DNA of 64,000 nucleotides from Escherichia coli (GCF_017348835.2 NZ_CP071375.1), one strand, 5' to 3'. Shown: positions 12,244 through 54,301, counted from the stretch's first letter. Notes: generated by a model from the sequence alone, not told the origin. Translations and numbers: made by a program.

Positions 12244-12380
12244 CCGTTGCTCCCTTAAGGGAGAAAGACAATCACAGCTTACCCTTACGTTGCCTGTAAC
12301 TATGATTTTCTTCATGTGCTAGATGAGGAATGTTTCATTTCTGCCCGGAACCACCAAGTCTTGGGCGGAAAAAATAAAAA

Positions 12381-12406
12381 AACCGACTGTCATGTCGGTT
12401 TTTTTA
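12381..12406 (-). terminator. hairpin plus U-run downstream of mnmH (A-run/T-run flanked, likely bidirectional)
   Basis: aaaaaaaccgactgtcatgtcggttttttt: stem ccgac/gtcgg, loop tgtcat. Confidence 0.5.
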
Positions 12407-12468
12407 TATCTGTATTCTGGTGCAACCATTCTGTTCTCACGACAATCGCCGTTTCAGAATACCGCCCA

Positions 12469-25370: not shown

Positions 25371-25490
25371 CCCTTACCTTTAAAGCGGATGCGATTTATA
25401 TCGCATAAGAGTGCAGTACTCATGCCGGATGCGGCATGAGTACCATATCCTTCCTGAAAATCGCGCAAATTCTATATATTGCAGAGATCA

Positions 25491-25521
25491 TGTAGGCCTG
25501 ATAAGCGAAGCGCATCAGGCA
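25491..25521. repeat. REP element
   Basis: tgtaggcctgataagcgaagcgcatcaggca. Confidence 0.6.
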
Positions 25522-25528
25522 ATGTTAC

Positions 25529-25555
25529 AAAAAAAGCCACGGTATAAACCGTGGC
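25529..25555 (-). terminator. intrinsic terminator downstream of ylbA/allE
   Basis: Minus-strand reading gccacggtttataccgtggc followed by TTTTTTT. Confidence 0.6.
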
Positions 25556-25597
25556 AAAATCCAACATAGCTAAAAATAATCAGGCGAGTGGTATGAC

Positions 25598-47010: not shown

Positions 47011-47087
47011 GCGCCCTTAGCTCAGTTGGATAGAGCAACGACCTTCTAAGTCGTGGGCCGCAGGTTCGAATCCTGCAGGGCGCGCCA
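47011..47087 (+). tRNA. argU: tRNA-Arg (anticodon UCU)
   Basis: 77 nt gcgcccttagctcagttggatagagcaacgaccttctaagtcgtgggccgcaggttcgaatcctgcagggcgcgcca; cloverleaf with anticodon loop cuUCUaa. Confidence 0.95.
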
Positions 47088-48797: not shown

Positions 48798-49153
48798 TAT
48801 GCTCCAGCCTCCGGTGCTTTTGGCATTACTGCCCAGTGAGTGATATTGACGTTTTCAAGGTCCCCGACCTGAAATGTCCACTGCCATTCTCCGGTTTCTT
48901 TTTGTCCCCAGTTGTACCAGAGAGAACGCCAGCCAATCAGCCAGCCTTCTCCATTAGCATCAAATAACAGAACACTTTCATTTGCTGGTGGCAGTTCAGC
49001 TGACACTGGTATTATTTTGTTTTCCAGTGCCGCACATTTAGCTTCAAGCGCGTCGAATTTACGTAACAGGTACTCAGCATTTGTTTCGTTCACTTTCAGA
49101 TCTCGCGGTACACATTTCCCGCGAAGAAACCCTTCCATTTCGAAAACATTCAT
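48797..49153 (-). CDS. hypothetical phage protein (resembles CPS-53 YfdS position)
   Basis: ~118 aa; ATG at 49153 overlaps stop of upstream HD gene (ATGA). Confidence 0.55.
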   Translation of the reverse strand: MNVFEMEGFLRGKCVPRDLKVNETNAEYLLRKFDALEAKCAALENKIIPVSAELPPANESVLLFDANGEGWLIGWRSLWYNWGQKETGEWQWTFQVGDLENVNITHWAVMPKAPEAGA

Positions 49154-49686
49154 GCGCATTTGCGTAACTCCGATAAATCGTTAAAACGTTCCATAAACAT
49201 CCCGTAGGCATGACCCGGTGCCAGTGGAATCACGTTGAACATCTCTGTTGCCGGGATGCCTTCCAGTACAGGCCAGAAAGAGCCATCATCAAGCCCGAGA
49301 TCGCGGCGTTCGGTTGCCAGCATGATGAGATCGGCATATTTCACGGGTGTACTCATAACTAGGGGTAACCCGTATTTCTCACGGATTACGGCGTCTATTT
49401 TTTCTTCCATTTGTTTATAGTCAGGAAGAAGGCGTTTCAGTGGTGCGGGAATGTCCTGGCAATACGCTTCTGTTGCATCATGCATTAACGCTTCAAAAGC
49501 AAATTCCTGCGGCACCAGCTGGCTGCAAAGAACCGCATGTTGGGCGACGCTGTAGAAGTGCGAAAGATGACCGGCAAAGCGACAGATATTTGAAAGGGAA
49601 ACCGCGATATCGTTAATATCGATGTCGTCTTTATTTATCTTGTCATAATAAAAATGCTTCCCGGAAAAAGTTTTAATAAATGACAT
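49150..49686 (-). CDS. HD-domain phosphohydrolase (YfdR-like)
   Basis: 178 aa from MSFIKTF with GGAG 8 nt upstream; H...HD motif (ALMHDATEAY). Confidence 0.7.
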   Translation of the reverse strand: MSFIKTFSGKHFYYDKINKDDIDINDIAVSLSNICRFAGHLSHFYSVAQHAVLCSQLVPQEFAFEALMHDATEAYCQDIPAPLKRLLPDYKQMEEKIDAVIREKYGLPLVMSTPVKYADLIMLATERRDLGLDDGSFWPVLEGIPATEMFNVIPLAPGHAYGMFMERFNDLSELRKCA

Positions 49687-49813
49687 TTTGTTCTCCACGT
49701 ATATGCACTGCACCGCGCTGAATTCTGGTAAAAGGAAGCCCTCACCATCCGGTGATTATTGAGTTAATTACGTTTCCATAAATGCCCCCGCAGGGGCATT
49801 TGCAGTAATGAAA

Positions 49814-50638
49814 TCAGGCGGTGAAAGTACCAATAAAGGTTTCTACTTTGCTGTCTTTGAATTTCTCAACAAGCAGATCACGAAATTCGTTAGCCATTTC
49901 TTCCTGCACCGCTTCCAGCTGAATAATGCGCAGAACCAGTACAGGACGATCGCCAGTGATAATGCTGAGGCGTAATTTAAACGGACGTTCTTTCAGGCCT
50001 TCAAACGGAACGCATTTAAATTCAAATGCCACTGGCATAATGTCTTTGGTCTTCGCTTCGACAGACTCCATCAGGGAGCGTTTGCCGCTGAAGTCATTAT
50101 CTTCAAAATCAGCGGTCTGGTTTGCTTCAATCGTGATTTTACGGACTGCCGCAGCCGCTTTTGTTGCCTGAATGGCGTCACCATTAGCATCAAAGCCCAC
50201 AAGGTAGTCGGCCCAGTCTTCGATCCATTCTGCCAGTGACTTCTGGGAGTTACGCTCGCCGTTAACAGACAACAGAGCAGAGAACGGTGCTGTCTTTTTC
50301 AGTTTGAGAGTGGCAGTGTTATCTGCGTGACCTGGCTCATCAATAGTACCCAGGTTAAGCACACTGACGGCACGCATATTATCGGCATCGATAAAGCAGC
50401 GGGTGCCTTCATCTGCAAGATCTTTAGAATAACGGGTAAAATCATCGATGCAGGCAGTGGAAAGTGCACCACGGAAACGGAAGCGATTTAAATTAAATTT
50501 TTCCAGATCATGAATGCGGAAATTCTCAGGCAATGCCACAGCATCGGCACCAATCTTACTGATAATTTCATTAACACCCTGAGCAGAAATAAGGGCATGG
50601 ATTTGATTAATTGCAGTTGCGTCTAAGTTCTGAGACAT
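49814..50638 (-). CDS. DUF2303-type phage protein (YfdQ-like)
   Basis: 274 aa. Confidence 0.65.
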
Positions 50639-50703
50639 AATAAGTCCTCACTATATAAAGATATTCAGTGATGAGATAAATAATCAGTTTATTACGAACG
50701 ATA

Positions 50704-51066
50704 TTAACGACCTGCTGCGCGGAGTTTTCCGTCAGGTTCACCGGCAAGAGTCAGTAATTGTCCCTGGTCTTCCTGCAGAATAGTCAGGCGACCACCGCGA
50801 TTGACATACATCGGCGTTTCGGTGGTGTCTTCTTCGGAAATTTTCCCGCGGTTAGTCGGGCGAATATATGAGAGTTTGTGTTTGATTTTCACACGGTTCT
50901 CATCAAATGGTTCGATTTCCAGGTTGAGTGAGACCTTACCTTTGGTTTTCGTGTTCATCACACCGGAAGCGACTTCACTGAGAACTGCGCCGATTTTGGT
51001 TTCAAATACGCCGCCGTCCAGCTCCCCGATAAATGCCTGCACATCAGTACTGCGTTCGCTAGCCAT
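50704..51066 (-). CDS. hypothetical phage protein (YfdP-like), first gene of the leftward block
   Basis: 120 aa from MASERSTDVQ; GGAG upstream. Confidence 0.55.
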   Translation of the reverse strand: MASERSTDVQAFIGELDGGVFETKIGAVLSEVASGVMNTKTKGKVSLNLEIEPFDENRVKIKHKLSYIRPTNRGKISEEDTTETPMYVNRGGRLTILQEDQGQLLTLAGEPDGKLRAAGR

Positions 51067-51536
51067 TTTGCTGCTCCTCATCATATCGACCCTGCAAGGC
51101 CGATTAGTTTCTCCACAAAACAGAGAAGAACACCTGTGGTGGCCGCCGCCCGGATGGATTGGGTTATGAGCCCGTCGTCCGGTGATGCTCTTCTCTGTTT
51201 TGTAAAAAGGACGGTACCAGCCGGAAGCAAGGGTACAAGCTGGTACCGCCAGGACTACACACAGCATAAAGTTGTGGTGCCGGGTGCCCTCCCGGTGCCT
51301 GGCGAAGGTTGCACACCAGGCGGGTGGGTATCCACAGAAGGTCGACTGTCAGCCTCAACCTTAACCCGCGTGCGCTGAGCCGCATTCACCACAACGCTAA
51401 GGATTCTCTCTGGTTGAAAATACTTAGCTGTTATGTGCCTGCTTTTAGCCACATCAGGCGAGGTGGACCTGGTTATTCCCCAACAACAAGGATTCGGTTA
51501 ATCTGGATATCCCCAACAACAATAAGAGTATTCAAT

Positions 51537-52052
51537 GTGATCGCTGAATTAACGGCAGCAATGACGGCTATTCGTGAAACAGCCCAGATTGCAAAACTAA
51601 TGAACGAGGCAAAAACTCAAGCTGAAGTAAATGCGGCTATTGGTGAGCTGAACTCAAAGCTTGCGTCTATTCAGCGCGAATGCGTGTCTCTCGTTGAACT
51701 GGTGGGCTCTTATCAAGAAATAAATGCTTCTCTCAAAGCTAAAATTGCAGAATTCGAAAACTTTGAGGCTCAGACGGAAGGCTATATCCTTAACCAACTT
51801 GAGTCGGGTACTTTTGTATACTCGAAGGAGGTAATCGTGAACGGTGGCAGCATAACCATGCATCTTTGCCCAAAATGTTTTGGACAAAAGATAGTATCGA
51901 TACTTCAACCATTCCCGGTTAGCGAAGATGAGCTTTTTCATAAAAGCAGGTGCCTCCACTGTGAAAATAAGTTTCTGATGAATAAAAATCCGGATTACGT
52001 ATCGCCTCCATCCATTGAGGAGTTGTCCAGAAAACTTAACGGCAATCTGTAG
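51537..52052 (+). CDS. orphan protein: N-terminal heptad-rich helix plus C-terminal CxxC...CxxC zinc ribbon; convergent with pL
   Basis: ~171 aa from GTG 51537 (or 163 aa from ATG 51561); protein-like composition; own terminator at 52092-52115. Confidence 0.55.
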   Translation: MIAELTAAMTAIRETAQIAKLMNEAKTQAEVNAAIGELNSKLASIQRECVSLVELVGSYQEINASLKAKIAEFENFEAQTEGYILNQLESGTFVYSKEVIVNGGSITMHLCPKCFGQKIVSILQPFPVSEDELFHKSRCLHCENKFLMNKNPDYVSPPSIEELSRKLNGNL

Positions 52053-52091
52053 ATTACTACTGTTGTGGATATCCAGATTGTTAAAGAGCTA

Positions 52092-52115
52092 AGCGTCCTG
52101 TAGGGCGCTTTTTTG
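52092..52115 (+). terminator. intrinsic terminator of the orphan plus-strand gene
   Basis: agcgtcc tgta gggcgct followed by TTTTTT. Confidence 0.6.
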
Positions 52116-52280
52116 TTGCTAACGAATCATCCTGGACTTCATATGCCCCAGGCGGCTACTTCGTGGGCGTCCTGCCTGTTCGTTTTTGACATTTACTGAC
52201 TGCTTACGACACATGCACCGTGTTGCAACCAGATTTTGTTGTAATCCTGTAGTTGGTCTGGAACAAAAGATAAAATTAAA

Positions 52281-52317
52281 TTGCGAGATATGCAAGCGAT
52301 ATTTGCGAGGTATGCAA
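52281..52317. promoter_or_regulatory. OL-type operator pair with likely leftward promoter pL
   Basis: Two 15-bp sites ttgcgagatatgcaa and ttgcgaggtatgcaa, 22 bp apart, just past the 3' end of cI; same motif as sites between cI and cro. Confidence 0.55.
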
Positions 52318-52371
52318 ATTTATAGGTAGTAAAAAGCCACCTTTCGGTGGCCGATGGATGGGATATTGAGG

Positions 52372-53064
52372 TTAATTATGTCTCTTAAGGGTTTGCGACT
52401 GACTGATTAAGACCTTTCCAAAGACCATGAATCGGTGTTCGTTTTCGCTAGTAATTCCCCATTCACGGTAAATCTGGTTATCAGAAATCACCAGCAGTTT
52501 GTCAGGAATCATTTGAAGTCTTTTAACGTATATTTTGTCATCAAAACCAAAGACATATATACCATCACCATCAAACTGATTGATGCTGACATCAACGAAG
52601 ATGAGATCTCCTGGCTCAATGGTTGGACACATACTGTCCCCACGAACGTTGATAACTTTGATGTGATTGGCTGGTCGTCCGCCGAACATTGATACAGCAT
52701 TATCAGTTCTGTATTCGATGGCATGAATCACATCAATGACATCACCGCCCTGGATAAGGCCATTTCCCGCACTGGCACTGATATCCAGCATTTCAATACG
52801 GAACACATCCTTCACCTGCGCAACATCCTCATTATTACTGTTTTTATATACAGTATTACTTTTGTGGGCAGAGGTAAAGAGATCAGCAATATCAACACCT
52901 AAGCTCTTGGCAATATTACTCAGTGTTTGTTCGGTAAATTGTTTTTGCTTACCCGTTTCTAAGCGCGAGATGTTCGCCGCATCTACTCCTATTGCTTCAG
53001 CGAGATCGGCGATTTTCATGTTCTTCGCTTGGCGAAGTTGTCTGACTCGGTTTCCTATGTTCAT
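52372..53064 (-). CDS. cI: CI-type prophage repressor (XRE HTH plus S24 LexA-like peptidase domain)
   Basis: 230 aa; N-terminal HTH (MKIADLAEAIGVDAANISRLETGK); C-terminal GDSM ... K peptidase motif. Confidence 0.85.
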   Translation of the reverse strand: MNIGNRVRQLRQAKNMKIADLAEAIGVDAANISRLETGKQKQFTEQTLSNIAKSLGVDIADLFTSAHKSNTVYKNSNNEDVAQVKDVFRIEMLDISASAGNGLIQGGDVIDVIHAIEYRTDNAVSMFGGRPANHIKVINVRGDSMCPTIEPGDLIFVDVSINQFDGDGIYVFGFDDKIYVKRLQMIPDKLLVISDNQIYREWGITSENEHRFMVFGKVLISQSQTLKRHN

Positions 53065-53084
53065 GCGTTTATTACATTTCTTTA

Positions 53085-53147
53085 TTGCGTGATAAGCAAA
53101 TCAACTTGCGCAAAATAATTGCGTGAAATAACATGCATAACGCGCAA
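53085..53147. promoter_or_regulatory. OR operator region with divergent pRM/pR
   Basis: ttgcgtgataagcaa (53085-53099), ttgcgcaa core, atgcataacgcgcaa (53133-53147) between divergent cI and cro. Confidence 0.55.
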
Positions 53148-53161
53148 TATTTGGAGGGCAT

Positions 53162-53422
53162 ATGCAATCACCATTACGAAATGTGCGTAAGGCGCATGGT
53201 TTCACTTTGCAGCATGTTGCTGCGGGTGTTCAAGTCAATCCAGCGACGTTGAGTCGTATTGAGAGGCTGGAGCAGATTCCATCTATCGAGCTTGCAGAAC
53301 GTTTAGCCAATTTTTTTAAGGGTGAAGTCAGCGAAATGCAGATTCTTTATCCGGCACGTTTTCAATCTAGCCAAAACCAGAATGGGTTTAAACCACAGGA
53401 ACAGGAGGTGAACCGTGGGTAA
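53162..53422 (+). CDS. cro: Cro-like HTH regulator
   Basis: 86 aa; HTH (GFTLQHVAAGVQVNPATLSRIE); GGAGGG upstream; divergent from cI. Confidence 0.75.
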   Translation: MQSPLRNVRKAHGFTLQHVAAGVQVNPATLSRIERLEQIPSIELAERLANFFKGEVSEMQILYPARFQSSQNQNGFKPQEQEVNRG

Positions 53423-53966
53423 GCATCACTGGAAAGTAGAAAAACAGCCTGAGTGTTACGTGAAAGCTGTCAGAAAAACTATCGCAGCGTTGCCGGGGGG
53501 GTACGCTGAAGCTGCTGACTGGCTGGATGTAACAGAGAACGCATTATTTAACCGCCTTCGTGCCGATGGCGATCAGATTTTCCCGCTGGGATGGGCAATG
53601 ATTTTGCAACGTGCTGGTGGAACTCACTTCATTGCTGACGCTGTGGCGCAGTCTGCAAATGGCGTCTTTGTGTCTCTTCCTGATGTCGAGGATGTGGACA
53701 ACGCCGATATCAACCAACGCCTGCTGGAAGTCATTGAACAGATCGGCAGTTATTCAAAACAGATTCGTTCAGCAATTGAAGACGGTGTAGTGGAACCGCA
53801 TGAGAAGACAGCAATTAACGATGAGCTGTACCTCTCAATTTCGAAGCTGCAGGAGCATGCAGCACTGGTCTACAAAATCTTTTGCGTTTCAGAAAGTAGT
53901 GACGCCCGCGAGTGTGCAGCTCCGGGCGCCGTGGCGTGTCGTGACTGTGGAGAAACTAACGCATGA
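53415..53966 (+). CDS. CII-like / YdaT-like regulatory protein
   Basis: 183 aa; position after cro; overlaps cro end. Confidence 0.55.
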
Positions 53967-54301
53967 ACAGTTTAACAACACACTACCGTCGCTCGCAACT
54001 GATTGCGCTTCCTGTACCGGGTGGAAAAGCGAAGGTGGAGTATTGCTATGCAGTAAATGTACCAGGTGACAGGGAAATTGTAACCCACAGCTTTGCAGAG
54101 TGGGCTGTGGGTGATTTCAACCGGCAGAAGGAGACAGTCCTTTGCGACAAGTTAACCGCTGGTTCAAAGATCACTACGGAGTGCCCGTCAGAGTCATTCG
54201 TTGGGAGCCGGAAACACAACGGGTTATCTACCTCCGTGAAGGCTATGAGCATGAGTGCTTCAGCCCGCTCGAACAGTTTCGTCGTAAATTCAGGGAAATA
54301 G
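53963..54301 (+). CDS. hypothetical protein; 3' half may belong to an alternative frame (possible frameshift or two small coupled genes)
   Basis: 112 aa ORF; a second frame from TTG 54142 to stop 54318 gives protein-like ...[55 protein letters not shown]. Confidence 0.4.

Follow-up and report, generated by a model that had tools for sequence, protein, structure and literature searches.

A structured non-coding block in the early-left region of a lambdoid Escherichia coli prophage carries an STnc100/PasD-like RNA domain

Within a 64,000-nucleotide stretch of Escherichia coli DNA (hereafter the window, meaning the whole of the sequence analysed), the block at positions 51067-51536 in the early-left region of a lambdoid prophage is a variant of known prophage small RNAs and not a put-like antiterminator. 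On balance, we favour the reading that it is a non-coding leader of the pL operon on the minus strand, in which a DicF-like small RNA (sRNA) is embedded, with attenuation and processing downstream of it. We are led to this reading by the fold of the minus strand, the homology of its core to STnc100, the covariation within that core, its pseudoknot and the long and leader hairpins near its 3' end; by a terminator that is kept with differing stems and a graded series of sequences leading to DicF; by an operon position that matches that of dicBF and by relatives, PasD and the STnc100 of EHEC, that are detected RNAs; and by a small RNA sequenced from the same strand of the e14 homologue, together with the fact that the block is not coding. 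Of 5426 complete E. coli genomes, 3007 contain part of the block and 1625 contain most of it; there it is annotated as 'hypothetical protein', as 'ymfH' or as nothing at all.

The initial annotation had described a GC-rich block dense in hairpins, and its observations on composition and repeats are borne out. GC content is 0.54-0.59 over 51000-51500, against 0.41-0.46 in the flanks. The perfect 15-bp inverted repeat (51115-51129 / 51188-51202, 58 nt between the arms) is present and lies inside a longer pair, I2, with 18-nt arms that are 94% complementary (51115-51132 / 51186-51203); the perfect 10-bp repeat (51212-51221 / 51239-51248) corresponds to pair I11, and the short stems ccggg/cccgg (51280-51295) and aaggttg/caacctt (51305-11 / 51356-62) are likewise found. 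For 51060-51540, the minus strand has a folding energy of -187 kcal/mol with z = -3.68, and none of 100 shuffled sequences was as stable, as compared with z = -1.76 for the plus strand; a candidate minus-strand RNA of 231 nt gives z = -3.7. The structure of the block is strand-specific and exceeds chance, and it belongs to the minus strand, that is, to the direction of transcription from pL.

Table 1. Coordinates of the RNA element, its neighbours and related features (positions in the window unless another locus is named)
Feature	Position	Strand	Remarks
CII-like gene	53415-53966	plus	
cro	53162-53422	plus	
CI-like repressor	52372-53064	minus	
Putative oL/pL	52267..52317	minus	15-bp operators TTGCATACCTCGCAA and TTGCATATCTCGCAA; -35 TTGCAT; -10 TATCTT
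Terminator of the 171-aa antisense ORF	52091-52110		
Antisense ORF, 171 aa	51537-52052	plus	PHROG 1244; between pL and block
Inverted repeat, 26 nt, 85%	51500-51525 / 52054-52079		flanks the antisense ORF; centred on palindrome TGGATATCCA
Conserved 37-nt box	51430..51466	minus	RNA sense CCACCUCGCCUGAUGUGGCUAAAAGCAGGCACAUAAC; can form 5-bp hairpin GCCUG/CAGGC
P0 hairpin (GCUAAG...CUUAGC)	51396..51428	minus	directly 5' of core; from minimum-energy fold
STnc100/PasD-type core, ~135 nt	51266..51401	minus	Rfam RF02076 and model R1
Core helix P1	51387-95 with 51271-79	minus	
Core helix P2	51371-84	minus	
Core helix P3	51365-70 with 51320-24	minus	
Core helix P4	51298-51320	minus	
Core helix P5	51280-95	minus	
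Core pseudoknot, 7 bp	51356-62 with 51305-11	minus	AAGGUUG with CAACCUU
Conserved unpaired stretch	51253..51266	minus	UGCUGUGUGUAGUC; unpaired in fold
Intrinsic terminator	51204..51250	minus	12-13-bp stem, 15-17-nt loop, then CUUUUU; contains 10-bp repeat I11
Long bifurcated hairpin I2	51109..51208	minus	~25-bp basal stem and apical hairpin GACGGGCUCAUAACCCAAUCCAUCCGG
Small GC-rich leader hairpin	51085..51104	minus	just 5' of ribosome-binding site
Shine-Dalgarno GAGGAG (51074-79) and ATG (51064-66) of yfdP-like gene	51064..51079	minus	
yfdP-like gene	50704-51066	minus	first of early-left operon; PHROG 204; PGAP name 'YfdP'
yfdQ (DUF2303), then yfdR	after yfdP-like gene		leftward early operon
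Other Rfam matches in window	25457-25591; 3386-3463; 12319-12407; 47011-47084		
Box-core insert in related loci	L006 ~2830-2960; L007; L009	minus	two hairpins with T-loop-like sequences GGUUCGAUUCC and CCGUUCAAUUCGG

The prophage is lambdoid, of the SfV/SfIV/ST64B/mEp460/e14 type (Table 1). Its two pL-side operators form the direct repeat D6 (52281-52317), with the pattern TTGC-N7-GCAA that is also present between the repressor and cro genes; because of this resemblance we infer that pL most likely lies at these operators and fires leftward from about 52260. The block had been placed between the leftward early genes and the putative pL; this order holds, but pL falls at about 52267-52317 and the plus-strand ORF 51537-52052 intervenes. 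The absence of an evident N-like gene is confirmed, as PHROGs reveals no N-type antiterminator among the proteins of the neighbouring genes. The intervening ORF is context that lies outside the RNA element. Its product has a coiled-coil N-terminus and a CxxC...CxxC motif at the C-terminus, with nothing significant in Pfam or PADLOC; SfV carries another gene at this place, and ST64B has no such ORF. In a leftward RNA, pairing of the arms of the 26-nt inverted repeat that flanks this ORF could loop out the whole of it. As a general feature of such loci the repeat was rejected, being absent around the different genes found there in SfIV and a Klebsiella relative, and as an operator its central palindrome was likewise set aside, with matches across the window near the chance level. 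The sequence TCCCCAACAACAA (in minus-strand sense TTGTTGTTGGGGA) occurs as two exact copies just upstream of the conserved box (51477-51489 and 51510-51522), and in other loci, Qin-like and Klebsiella (L058, L104, L111, L010), the box has this pair ahead of it as well; as a possible regulatory site, the pair could belong either to the divergent ORF or to the leftward RNA. Elsewhere in the window, Rfam matches above the gathering cut-off comprise adjoining ES036 and STnc480, naRNA4, AgrB and a tRNA gene (47011-47084). Immediately to the left of the end of the prophage that carries the integrase, this tRNA gene is probably the attachment site. In the rightward early regions of ST64B (L002 5731-5919) and mEp460 (L003 5675-5863) there are matches to isrK and C4 antisense RNA above the cut-off, and the window has neither at the gathering threshold.

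Folding and covariance analysis across related prophages, by which the initial annotation had proposed to check the block, revealed structural conservation and covarying helices, and the proposed Rfam scan gave a match to STnc100 at 36.5 bits (E = 2e-5). This match spans the full length of the RF02076 model (positions 1-206) and stays below the gathering cut-off of 47 bits; relatives score 30-42 bits. A pattern scan of viral contigs gave 120 loci with 67 distinct core sequences, and 36 cores were used for the alignment. The covariance model R1, derived from this alignment and with no cores in it other than those of the window and dicB types, scores 100 bits at the core in the window, of which there is exactly one copy in the 64 kb. 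It finds the canonical STnc100 of PA28 with 41 bits (E = 3e-9) and of H-19B with 29.5 bits (E = 5e-6), E-values from such models being rough; the copy in e14 is detected too, as are divergent ones in mEp460 and in a Klebsiella phage, and nothing is found in HK022. Because of the Rfam E-value and because R1 detects both the core in the window and canonical STnc100, the core is judged to be homologous to STnc100/PasD. In the 36-core alignment, helices P1, P2, P3 and P5 are 98.4% paired and six pairs change on both sides, with a covariation score of 0.217 against 0.103 for shuffled alignments and at most 0.07 when the partners are slid, these counts coming from related sequences of which many are close.

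The core further contains a pseudoknot, in which the loop of P4 pairs with the strand that directly follows P3, and which is absent from the consensus structure line of Rfam STnc100. It occurs in 5-6 covarying sequence versions, among them AAGGUUG/CAACCUU in the window, AAGGCUG/CAGCCUU in phiES15, CAGUUAA/UUAACUG in the dicB type and UGGUUAU/AUAACCA; canonical STnc100 has CUGGUG/(C or U)ACCAG, in the same register as all other versions. Each version taken alone has a shuffle probability of 0.02-0.08 (computed with our own script). In the copy of the window an additional G, unique among the 67 cores, stands in the P5 loop, which is otherwise invariant. The e14 copy has a mutated P5 loop of its own (GGGGGCACCC). 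The window and the identical copy of strain PE164 share two substitutions that weaken the small apical hairpin of the long stem (51140-51152) in comparison with all relatives; the extra P5-loop G and this weakened hairpin may mark an early decay of the element in the window. A tRNA-like element was considered and rejected: ARAGORN calls no tRNA in the region of the window or in six related loci, Rfam tRNA (RF00005) gives no match at E <= 1, and it is only the order of the helices that, on our reading, resembles a class II tRNA.

STnc100 and PasD are sRNAs of Salmonella, EHEC and EPEC prophages. EHEC EDL933 has 11 copies of STnc100, most of which are transcribed and one of which is northern-validated. 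According to Zhu, Shabalina and Storz, PasD and STnc100 are structurally related, and PasD is an Hfq-associated, northern-validated sRNA with many RIL-seq partners. The element in the window shares with them the closing helix GUGGUG/CACCAC, the strings GAAUGCGG and CACCNGGAGGCACCNGGCACC, the pseudoknot and a 3' intrinsic terminator, as well as a location in a lambdoid prophage in sense orientation within a long operon. It differs in scoring below the Rfam cut-off, in having interior hairpins, a putative seed and a terminator of its own, in the addition of the box, P0 and the long hairpin, and in its place in the early-left operon, whereas they follow stxB or sit between Q and the esterase/lysis genes. 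In the Stx phages we examined, canonical STnc100 lies in sense orientation in the late operon just after stxB, a position stated elsewhere too (PMC12370729). In Qin-like prophages, the same core is found directly between the DicF terminator and the ribosome-binding site of dicB, with a closing helix of about 21 bp; in other loci it stands 20-40 nt ahead of other small ORFs or among tRNA genes.

Downstream of the core, the minus strand continues with the conserved unpaired stretch UGCUGUGUGUAGUC and an intrinsic terminator. The stretch is nearly invariant in SfV-type loci, ST64B (one mismatch), phiES15, phiNP and Kp4866-6, and we take it to be a candidate base-pairing seed of an sRNA. Within the window, complements of the seed of at least 9 nt number 10, against 7 expected, which is the chance level; duplex energies with ftsZ from -80 to +45 are no better than those of shuffled sequences, and as the same holds for genuine DicF, this test has no power. 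The terminator hairpin alone folds at -23 kcal/mol (z = -4.9), and a simple terminator scan had missed it because its loop limit was 8 nt. In ST64B, phiNP, e14 and phiES15 the terminator stems are of different sequence, and each is then followed by CCUUUUU. A possible anti-terminator pairing of P4 with the terminator (CCUGGCG/CGCCAGG) was discarded, being found in the window and absent in ST64B and phiES15.

The Rfam DicF model (RF00039) has no match at E <= 1 in 49000-54000. However, a series of loci grades from K-12-type DicF to L046, which scores 54.7 bits with that model (cut-off 48) and already carries UGCUGUGUGUAGUC, to L062 with 38.1 bits, to phiNP and finally to the window, in which DicF is no longer matched. 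Judged by this gradation, the 3' module in the window appears as the far end of a series leading to DicF. Like DicF, the element lies in a pL-type operon, with a presumably leaky terminator ahead of the early-left genes. Ragunathan et al. reported that the dicBF promoter is similar to lambda pL and that DicF is derived from the operon transcript, with RNase III producing a 190-nt form, whose 5' end it makes, and RNase E a 53-nt form. The two systems have in common a pL-type early-left transcript, a terminator-released sRNA (in the window, a predicted one), RNase III-type stems nearby, sequences that grade into one another and an STnc100-type core, which in Qin lies between dicF and dicB. They differ in the seed, that of the window being unlike that of K-12 DicF, and in the order of the modules, with the core preceding the sRNA end in the window and DicF preceding the core in Qin; the genes that follow are yfdPQR in the former and dicB in the latter. 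About 140 nt upstream of DicF in L017, L058 and L111, in the region that gives the 190-nt DicF precursor, there is a structure with the closing helix GGUUGUGGC...GCCACAA and an order of hairpins that recalls the STnc100-type core; by eye this Qin-like pre-DicF structure (GUUGUGG...CCACAA) is similar, but R1 does not detect it at E <= 1, and we do not count it as a second copy of the core. Also in Qin-like loci, a long stem just after the box ends about where the 190-nt form of DicF should begin, as judged in L017 by counting that length back from the terminator.

At its 5' side the element is preceded by the conserved box, which is common to phage loci of E. coli, Salmonella, Cronobacter and Klebsiella, with RNA modules that differ lying downstream of it. 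In the e14 homologue, a 68-nt RNA (ECS171) from the same strand, recorded in a deep-sequencing survey (PMC3175480 supplement), has its 3' end exactly at the ...CAGGC of the box hairpin. A sigma-70 scan found no promoter on the minus strand near 51430-51540, and signals at the box itself gave no clear promoter: a sigma-54-like GG/GC spacing, assessed by eye, fits the window and is off by one in SfV-type copies, and AT-rich hexamers upstream are without the -7 T. As no promoter was found beside the element, the RNA may be scarce in a repressed lysogen. At the position of P0, ST64B and phiES15 have a different hairpin. Between box and core, Salmonella 118970_sal3, Klebsiella Kp4866-6 and Citrobacter phiNP have an extra insert on the minus strand (Table 1), in which ARAGORN calls no tRNA or tmRNA (L006, L007, L009).

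At the 3' side, the basal stem of I2 includes the perfect 15-bp repeat and also pairs the U-tract of the terminator. I2 folds at -46.5 kcal/mol (z = -6.0), and its apical hairpin is highly conserved. In alignment A2, the 25 basal pairs of I2 are 97.5% paired, three of them with compensatory change; over the whole structure of the I2 region in 13 sequences, pairing is at 95.7% and 10 pairs change on both sides, with a covariation score of 0.146 as against 0.071. The small leader hairpin has compensatory changes at four of its six pairs in the 13 sequences. I2 is plausible as a candidate RNase III processing site because its stem of about 25 bp is conserved with compensatory changes and stands just upstream of the first gene. 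The leader of the phage lambda N gene carries an RNase III site, and there too a long stem lies between pL and the first leftward gene, immediately upstream of its ribosome-binding site; the two are unrelated in sequence, and the predicted site in the window differs in overlapping the U-tract of the preceding terminator.

These features can be assembled into a model in which the upstream two-thirds of the block, from about 51430 to 51204, would give rise to an sRNA of about 190-230 nt, composed of a pseudoknotted STnc100/PasD-type 5' domain, the seed UGCUGUGUGUAGUC and a DicF-like intrinsic terminator. When pL fires, some polymerases would stop at the 51204-51250 terminator and the sRNA would be released to act, presumably in trans, on targets of its own; the remaining polymerases would continue past it into the ~25-bp stem. 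RNase III probably cuts this stem, which would part the sRNA from the yfdP-yfdQ-yfdR mRNA and set the 5' end of that mRNA, and the terminator would also limit transcription into yfdPQR, to a degree governed by its efficiency. The same logic would apply as in dicBF of Qin, where DicF is freed from a pL-like transcript by termination and through RNase III as well as RNase E cleavage. The initial annotation had offered three possibilities for the block, namely a put-like antitermination RNA, an RNase III processing site and a small RNA, of which the last is the best supported, given an STnc100/PasD-homologous domain followed by an unpaired stretch and a terminator that grade into DicF. Against it stand the STnc100 score of 36.5 bits where 47 are required and the lack of a DicF match at E <= 1; the lack of a promoter beside the element in the scan and the separation from pL by about 830 nt, in which an antisense ORF and its terminator lie; the dicB-type loci, in which the core has no terminator; the failure to find complementary targets in the ftsZ start region and the window; and the extra loop G and apical-hairpin mismatch, by which the copy is perhaps slightly degraded.

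That the region is instead a protein-coding ymfH-like gene, frameshifted in the window, is extremely improbable. The ORFs of the block are the counterpart of 'ymfH' in the e14 prophage of K-12, whose homologue is 89% identical and has a RefSeq entry as protein YmfH; the copy in strain PE164, which is identical to the window, is called a 'frameshifted' pseudogene by PGAP, and close relatives have open frames of 90-115 codons. However, among 17 close relatives the variable columns are distributed 24/29/28 over codon positions 1/2/3, without third-position bias, and there are several 1-nt indels and one 8-nt deletion within the frame, in agreement with the earlier judgement that no convincing ORF is present. 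The frame is not kept in the ST64B, phiES15 and Klebsiella homologues while the RNA helices are kept and covary, and the predicted product is of low complexity, rich in Arg and Pro. The block is non-coding, and the annotation of the ymfH CDS in K-12 e14 is probably a mis-annotation; in the e14 locus (L133 3076-3387), this CDS overlaps the homologous core, the terminator and the long hairpin. Very improbable, too, is processive antitermination in the manner of HK022 put, by which the core of the nascent RNA would bind RNA polymerase, carry it through the terminator in the leader and those further on, and replace the missing N. This view could draw on the lack of an N-like gene, a position in the pL operon upstream of a terminator and a complex, conserved fold; like put, the element is a structured RNA predicted for the nascent transcript of an early operon in an N-less lambdoid phage. 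HK022 put suppresses termination via the beta' zinc-binding domain of RNA polymerase; it is about 70 nt long with two stems and each early operon has a copy, putL immediately behind pL and putR at about 270 nt past the pR start. The element in the window is of about 135-230 nt, has its own terminator after it and begins about 830 nt from the putative pL; its core is single-copy in the 64 kb, with none in the rightward or late operons. A covariance model of eight put sequences (R2; HK022, phiEt88, HK639, CobraSix and UPF_BP1 putL/putR) recovers HK022 putL and putR, HK639 and CobraSix at 73-98 bits. In the window it attains at best 9.7 bits (E = 1.7), with nothing at all in 50-53.5 kb, and it has no match in the related phage loci. 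Moreover, relatives of the core end at terminators or lie after them: STnc100 and PasD accumulate as RNAs that end at a terminator directly after the core, and Qin-like loci have the DicF terminator upstream of the core. The suggestion of a put-like RNA is thus not sustained.

The main rival, which we rate as unlikely though well short of negligible, is that the element acts purely in cis as a module for processing, stability or insulation, with the core and hairpins defining or protecting RNA ends, or setting how much transcription and translation reach the downstream genes, and that the terminated RNA is a by-product without targets in trans. In many loci the core stands 20-40 nt before the start codons of unrelated small ORFs, dicB and others, without a terminator, and as the dicB-type core lies directly before the ribosome-binding site, the primary role of the core may be in cis. 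In late operons the core likewise occurs amid tRNA genes. Phages of several host genera have its loops without variation, suggesting a common host factor, and in the window the first gene is closely preceded by the terminator, by the long stem and by the leader hairpin with its covarying pairs. On the other hand, the single-stranded stretch between core and terminator is kept across genera and is common to DicF-type loci, as a seed would be, and the relative PasD has many Hfq-dependent RNA partners. An attenuator of riboswitch type, in which the core would sense a ligand or factor, decide whether the 51204-51250 terminator forms and so gate early-left expression, is improbable. The multi-helix junction, the pseudoknot and the invariant loops have the complexity of an aptamer, and a terminator follows directly after the core, with the first gene of the operon beyond it; but no alternative pairing is conserved, the one seen in the window (above) being missing from two relatives, the dicB-type loci have the core without a downstream terminator, and Rfam matches no riboswitch family.

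If the block does embed a DicF-like sRNA, as we favour, an induction-specific sRNA and an RNase III-dependent 5' end of the yfdP mRNA would be predicted. For the STnc100 family, the prediction is a pseudoknot beyond the Rfam consensus structure. More speculatively, and we consider this rather doubtful, the core may be less the body of an sRNA than a compact, pseudoknotted module whose helices follow one another as in a class II tRNA, recognised by a host factor and reused by lambdoid phages at operon junctions, with the seeds as interchangeable add-ons. If this were true, the factor might be, for example, RNase P, RNase E, RNA polymerase or the ribosome, and the module would punctuate, stabilise or tune long transcripts at sites as different as the positions ahead of dicB and of other small ORFs that are often toxic, the one behind stx, those amid tRNA genes and the pL leader. 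Regarding the block as an RNA links the STnc100/PasD of Stx phages, the dicF-dicB spacer of Qin and the early-left leader of SfV/ST64B/e14-type prophages, three subjects that are as a rule dealt with apart, and suggests that prophage sRNAs are put together from a shared folded domain that is shuffled with various seeds and terminators.
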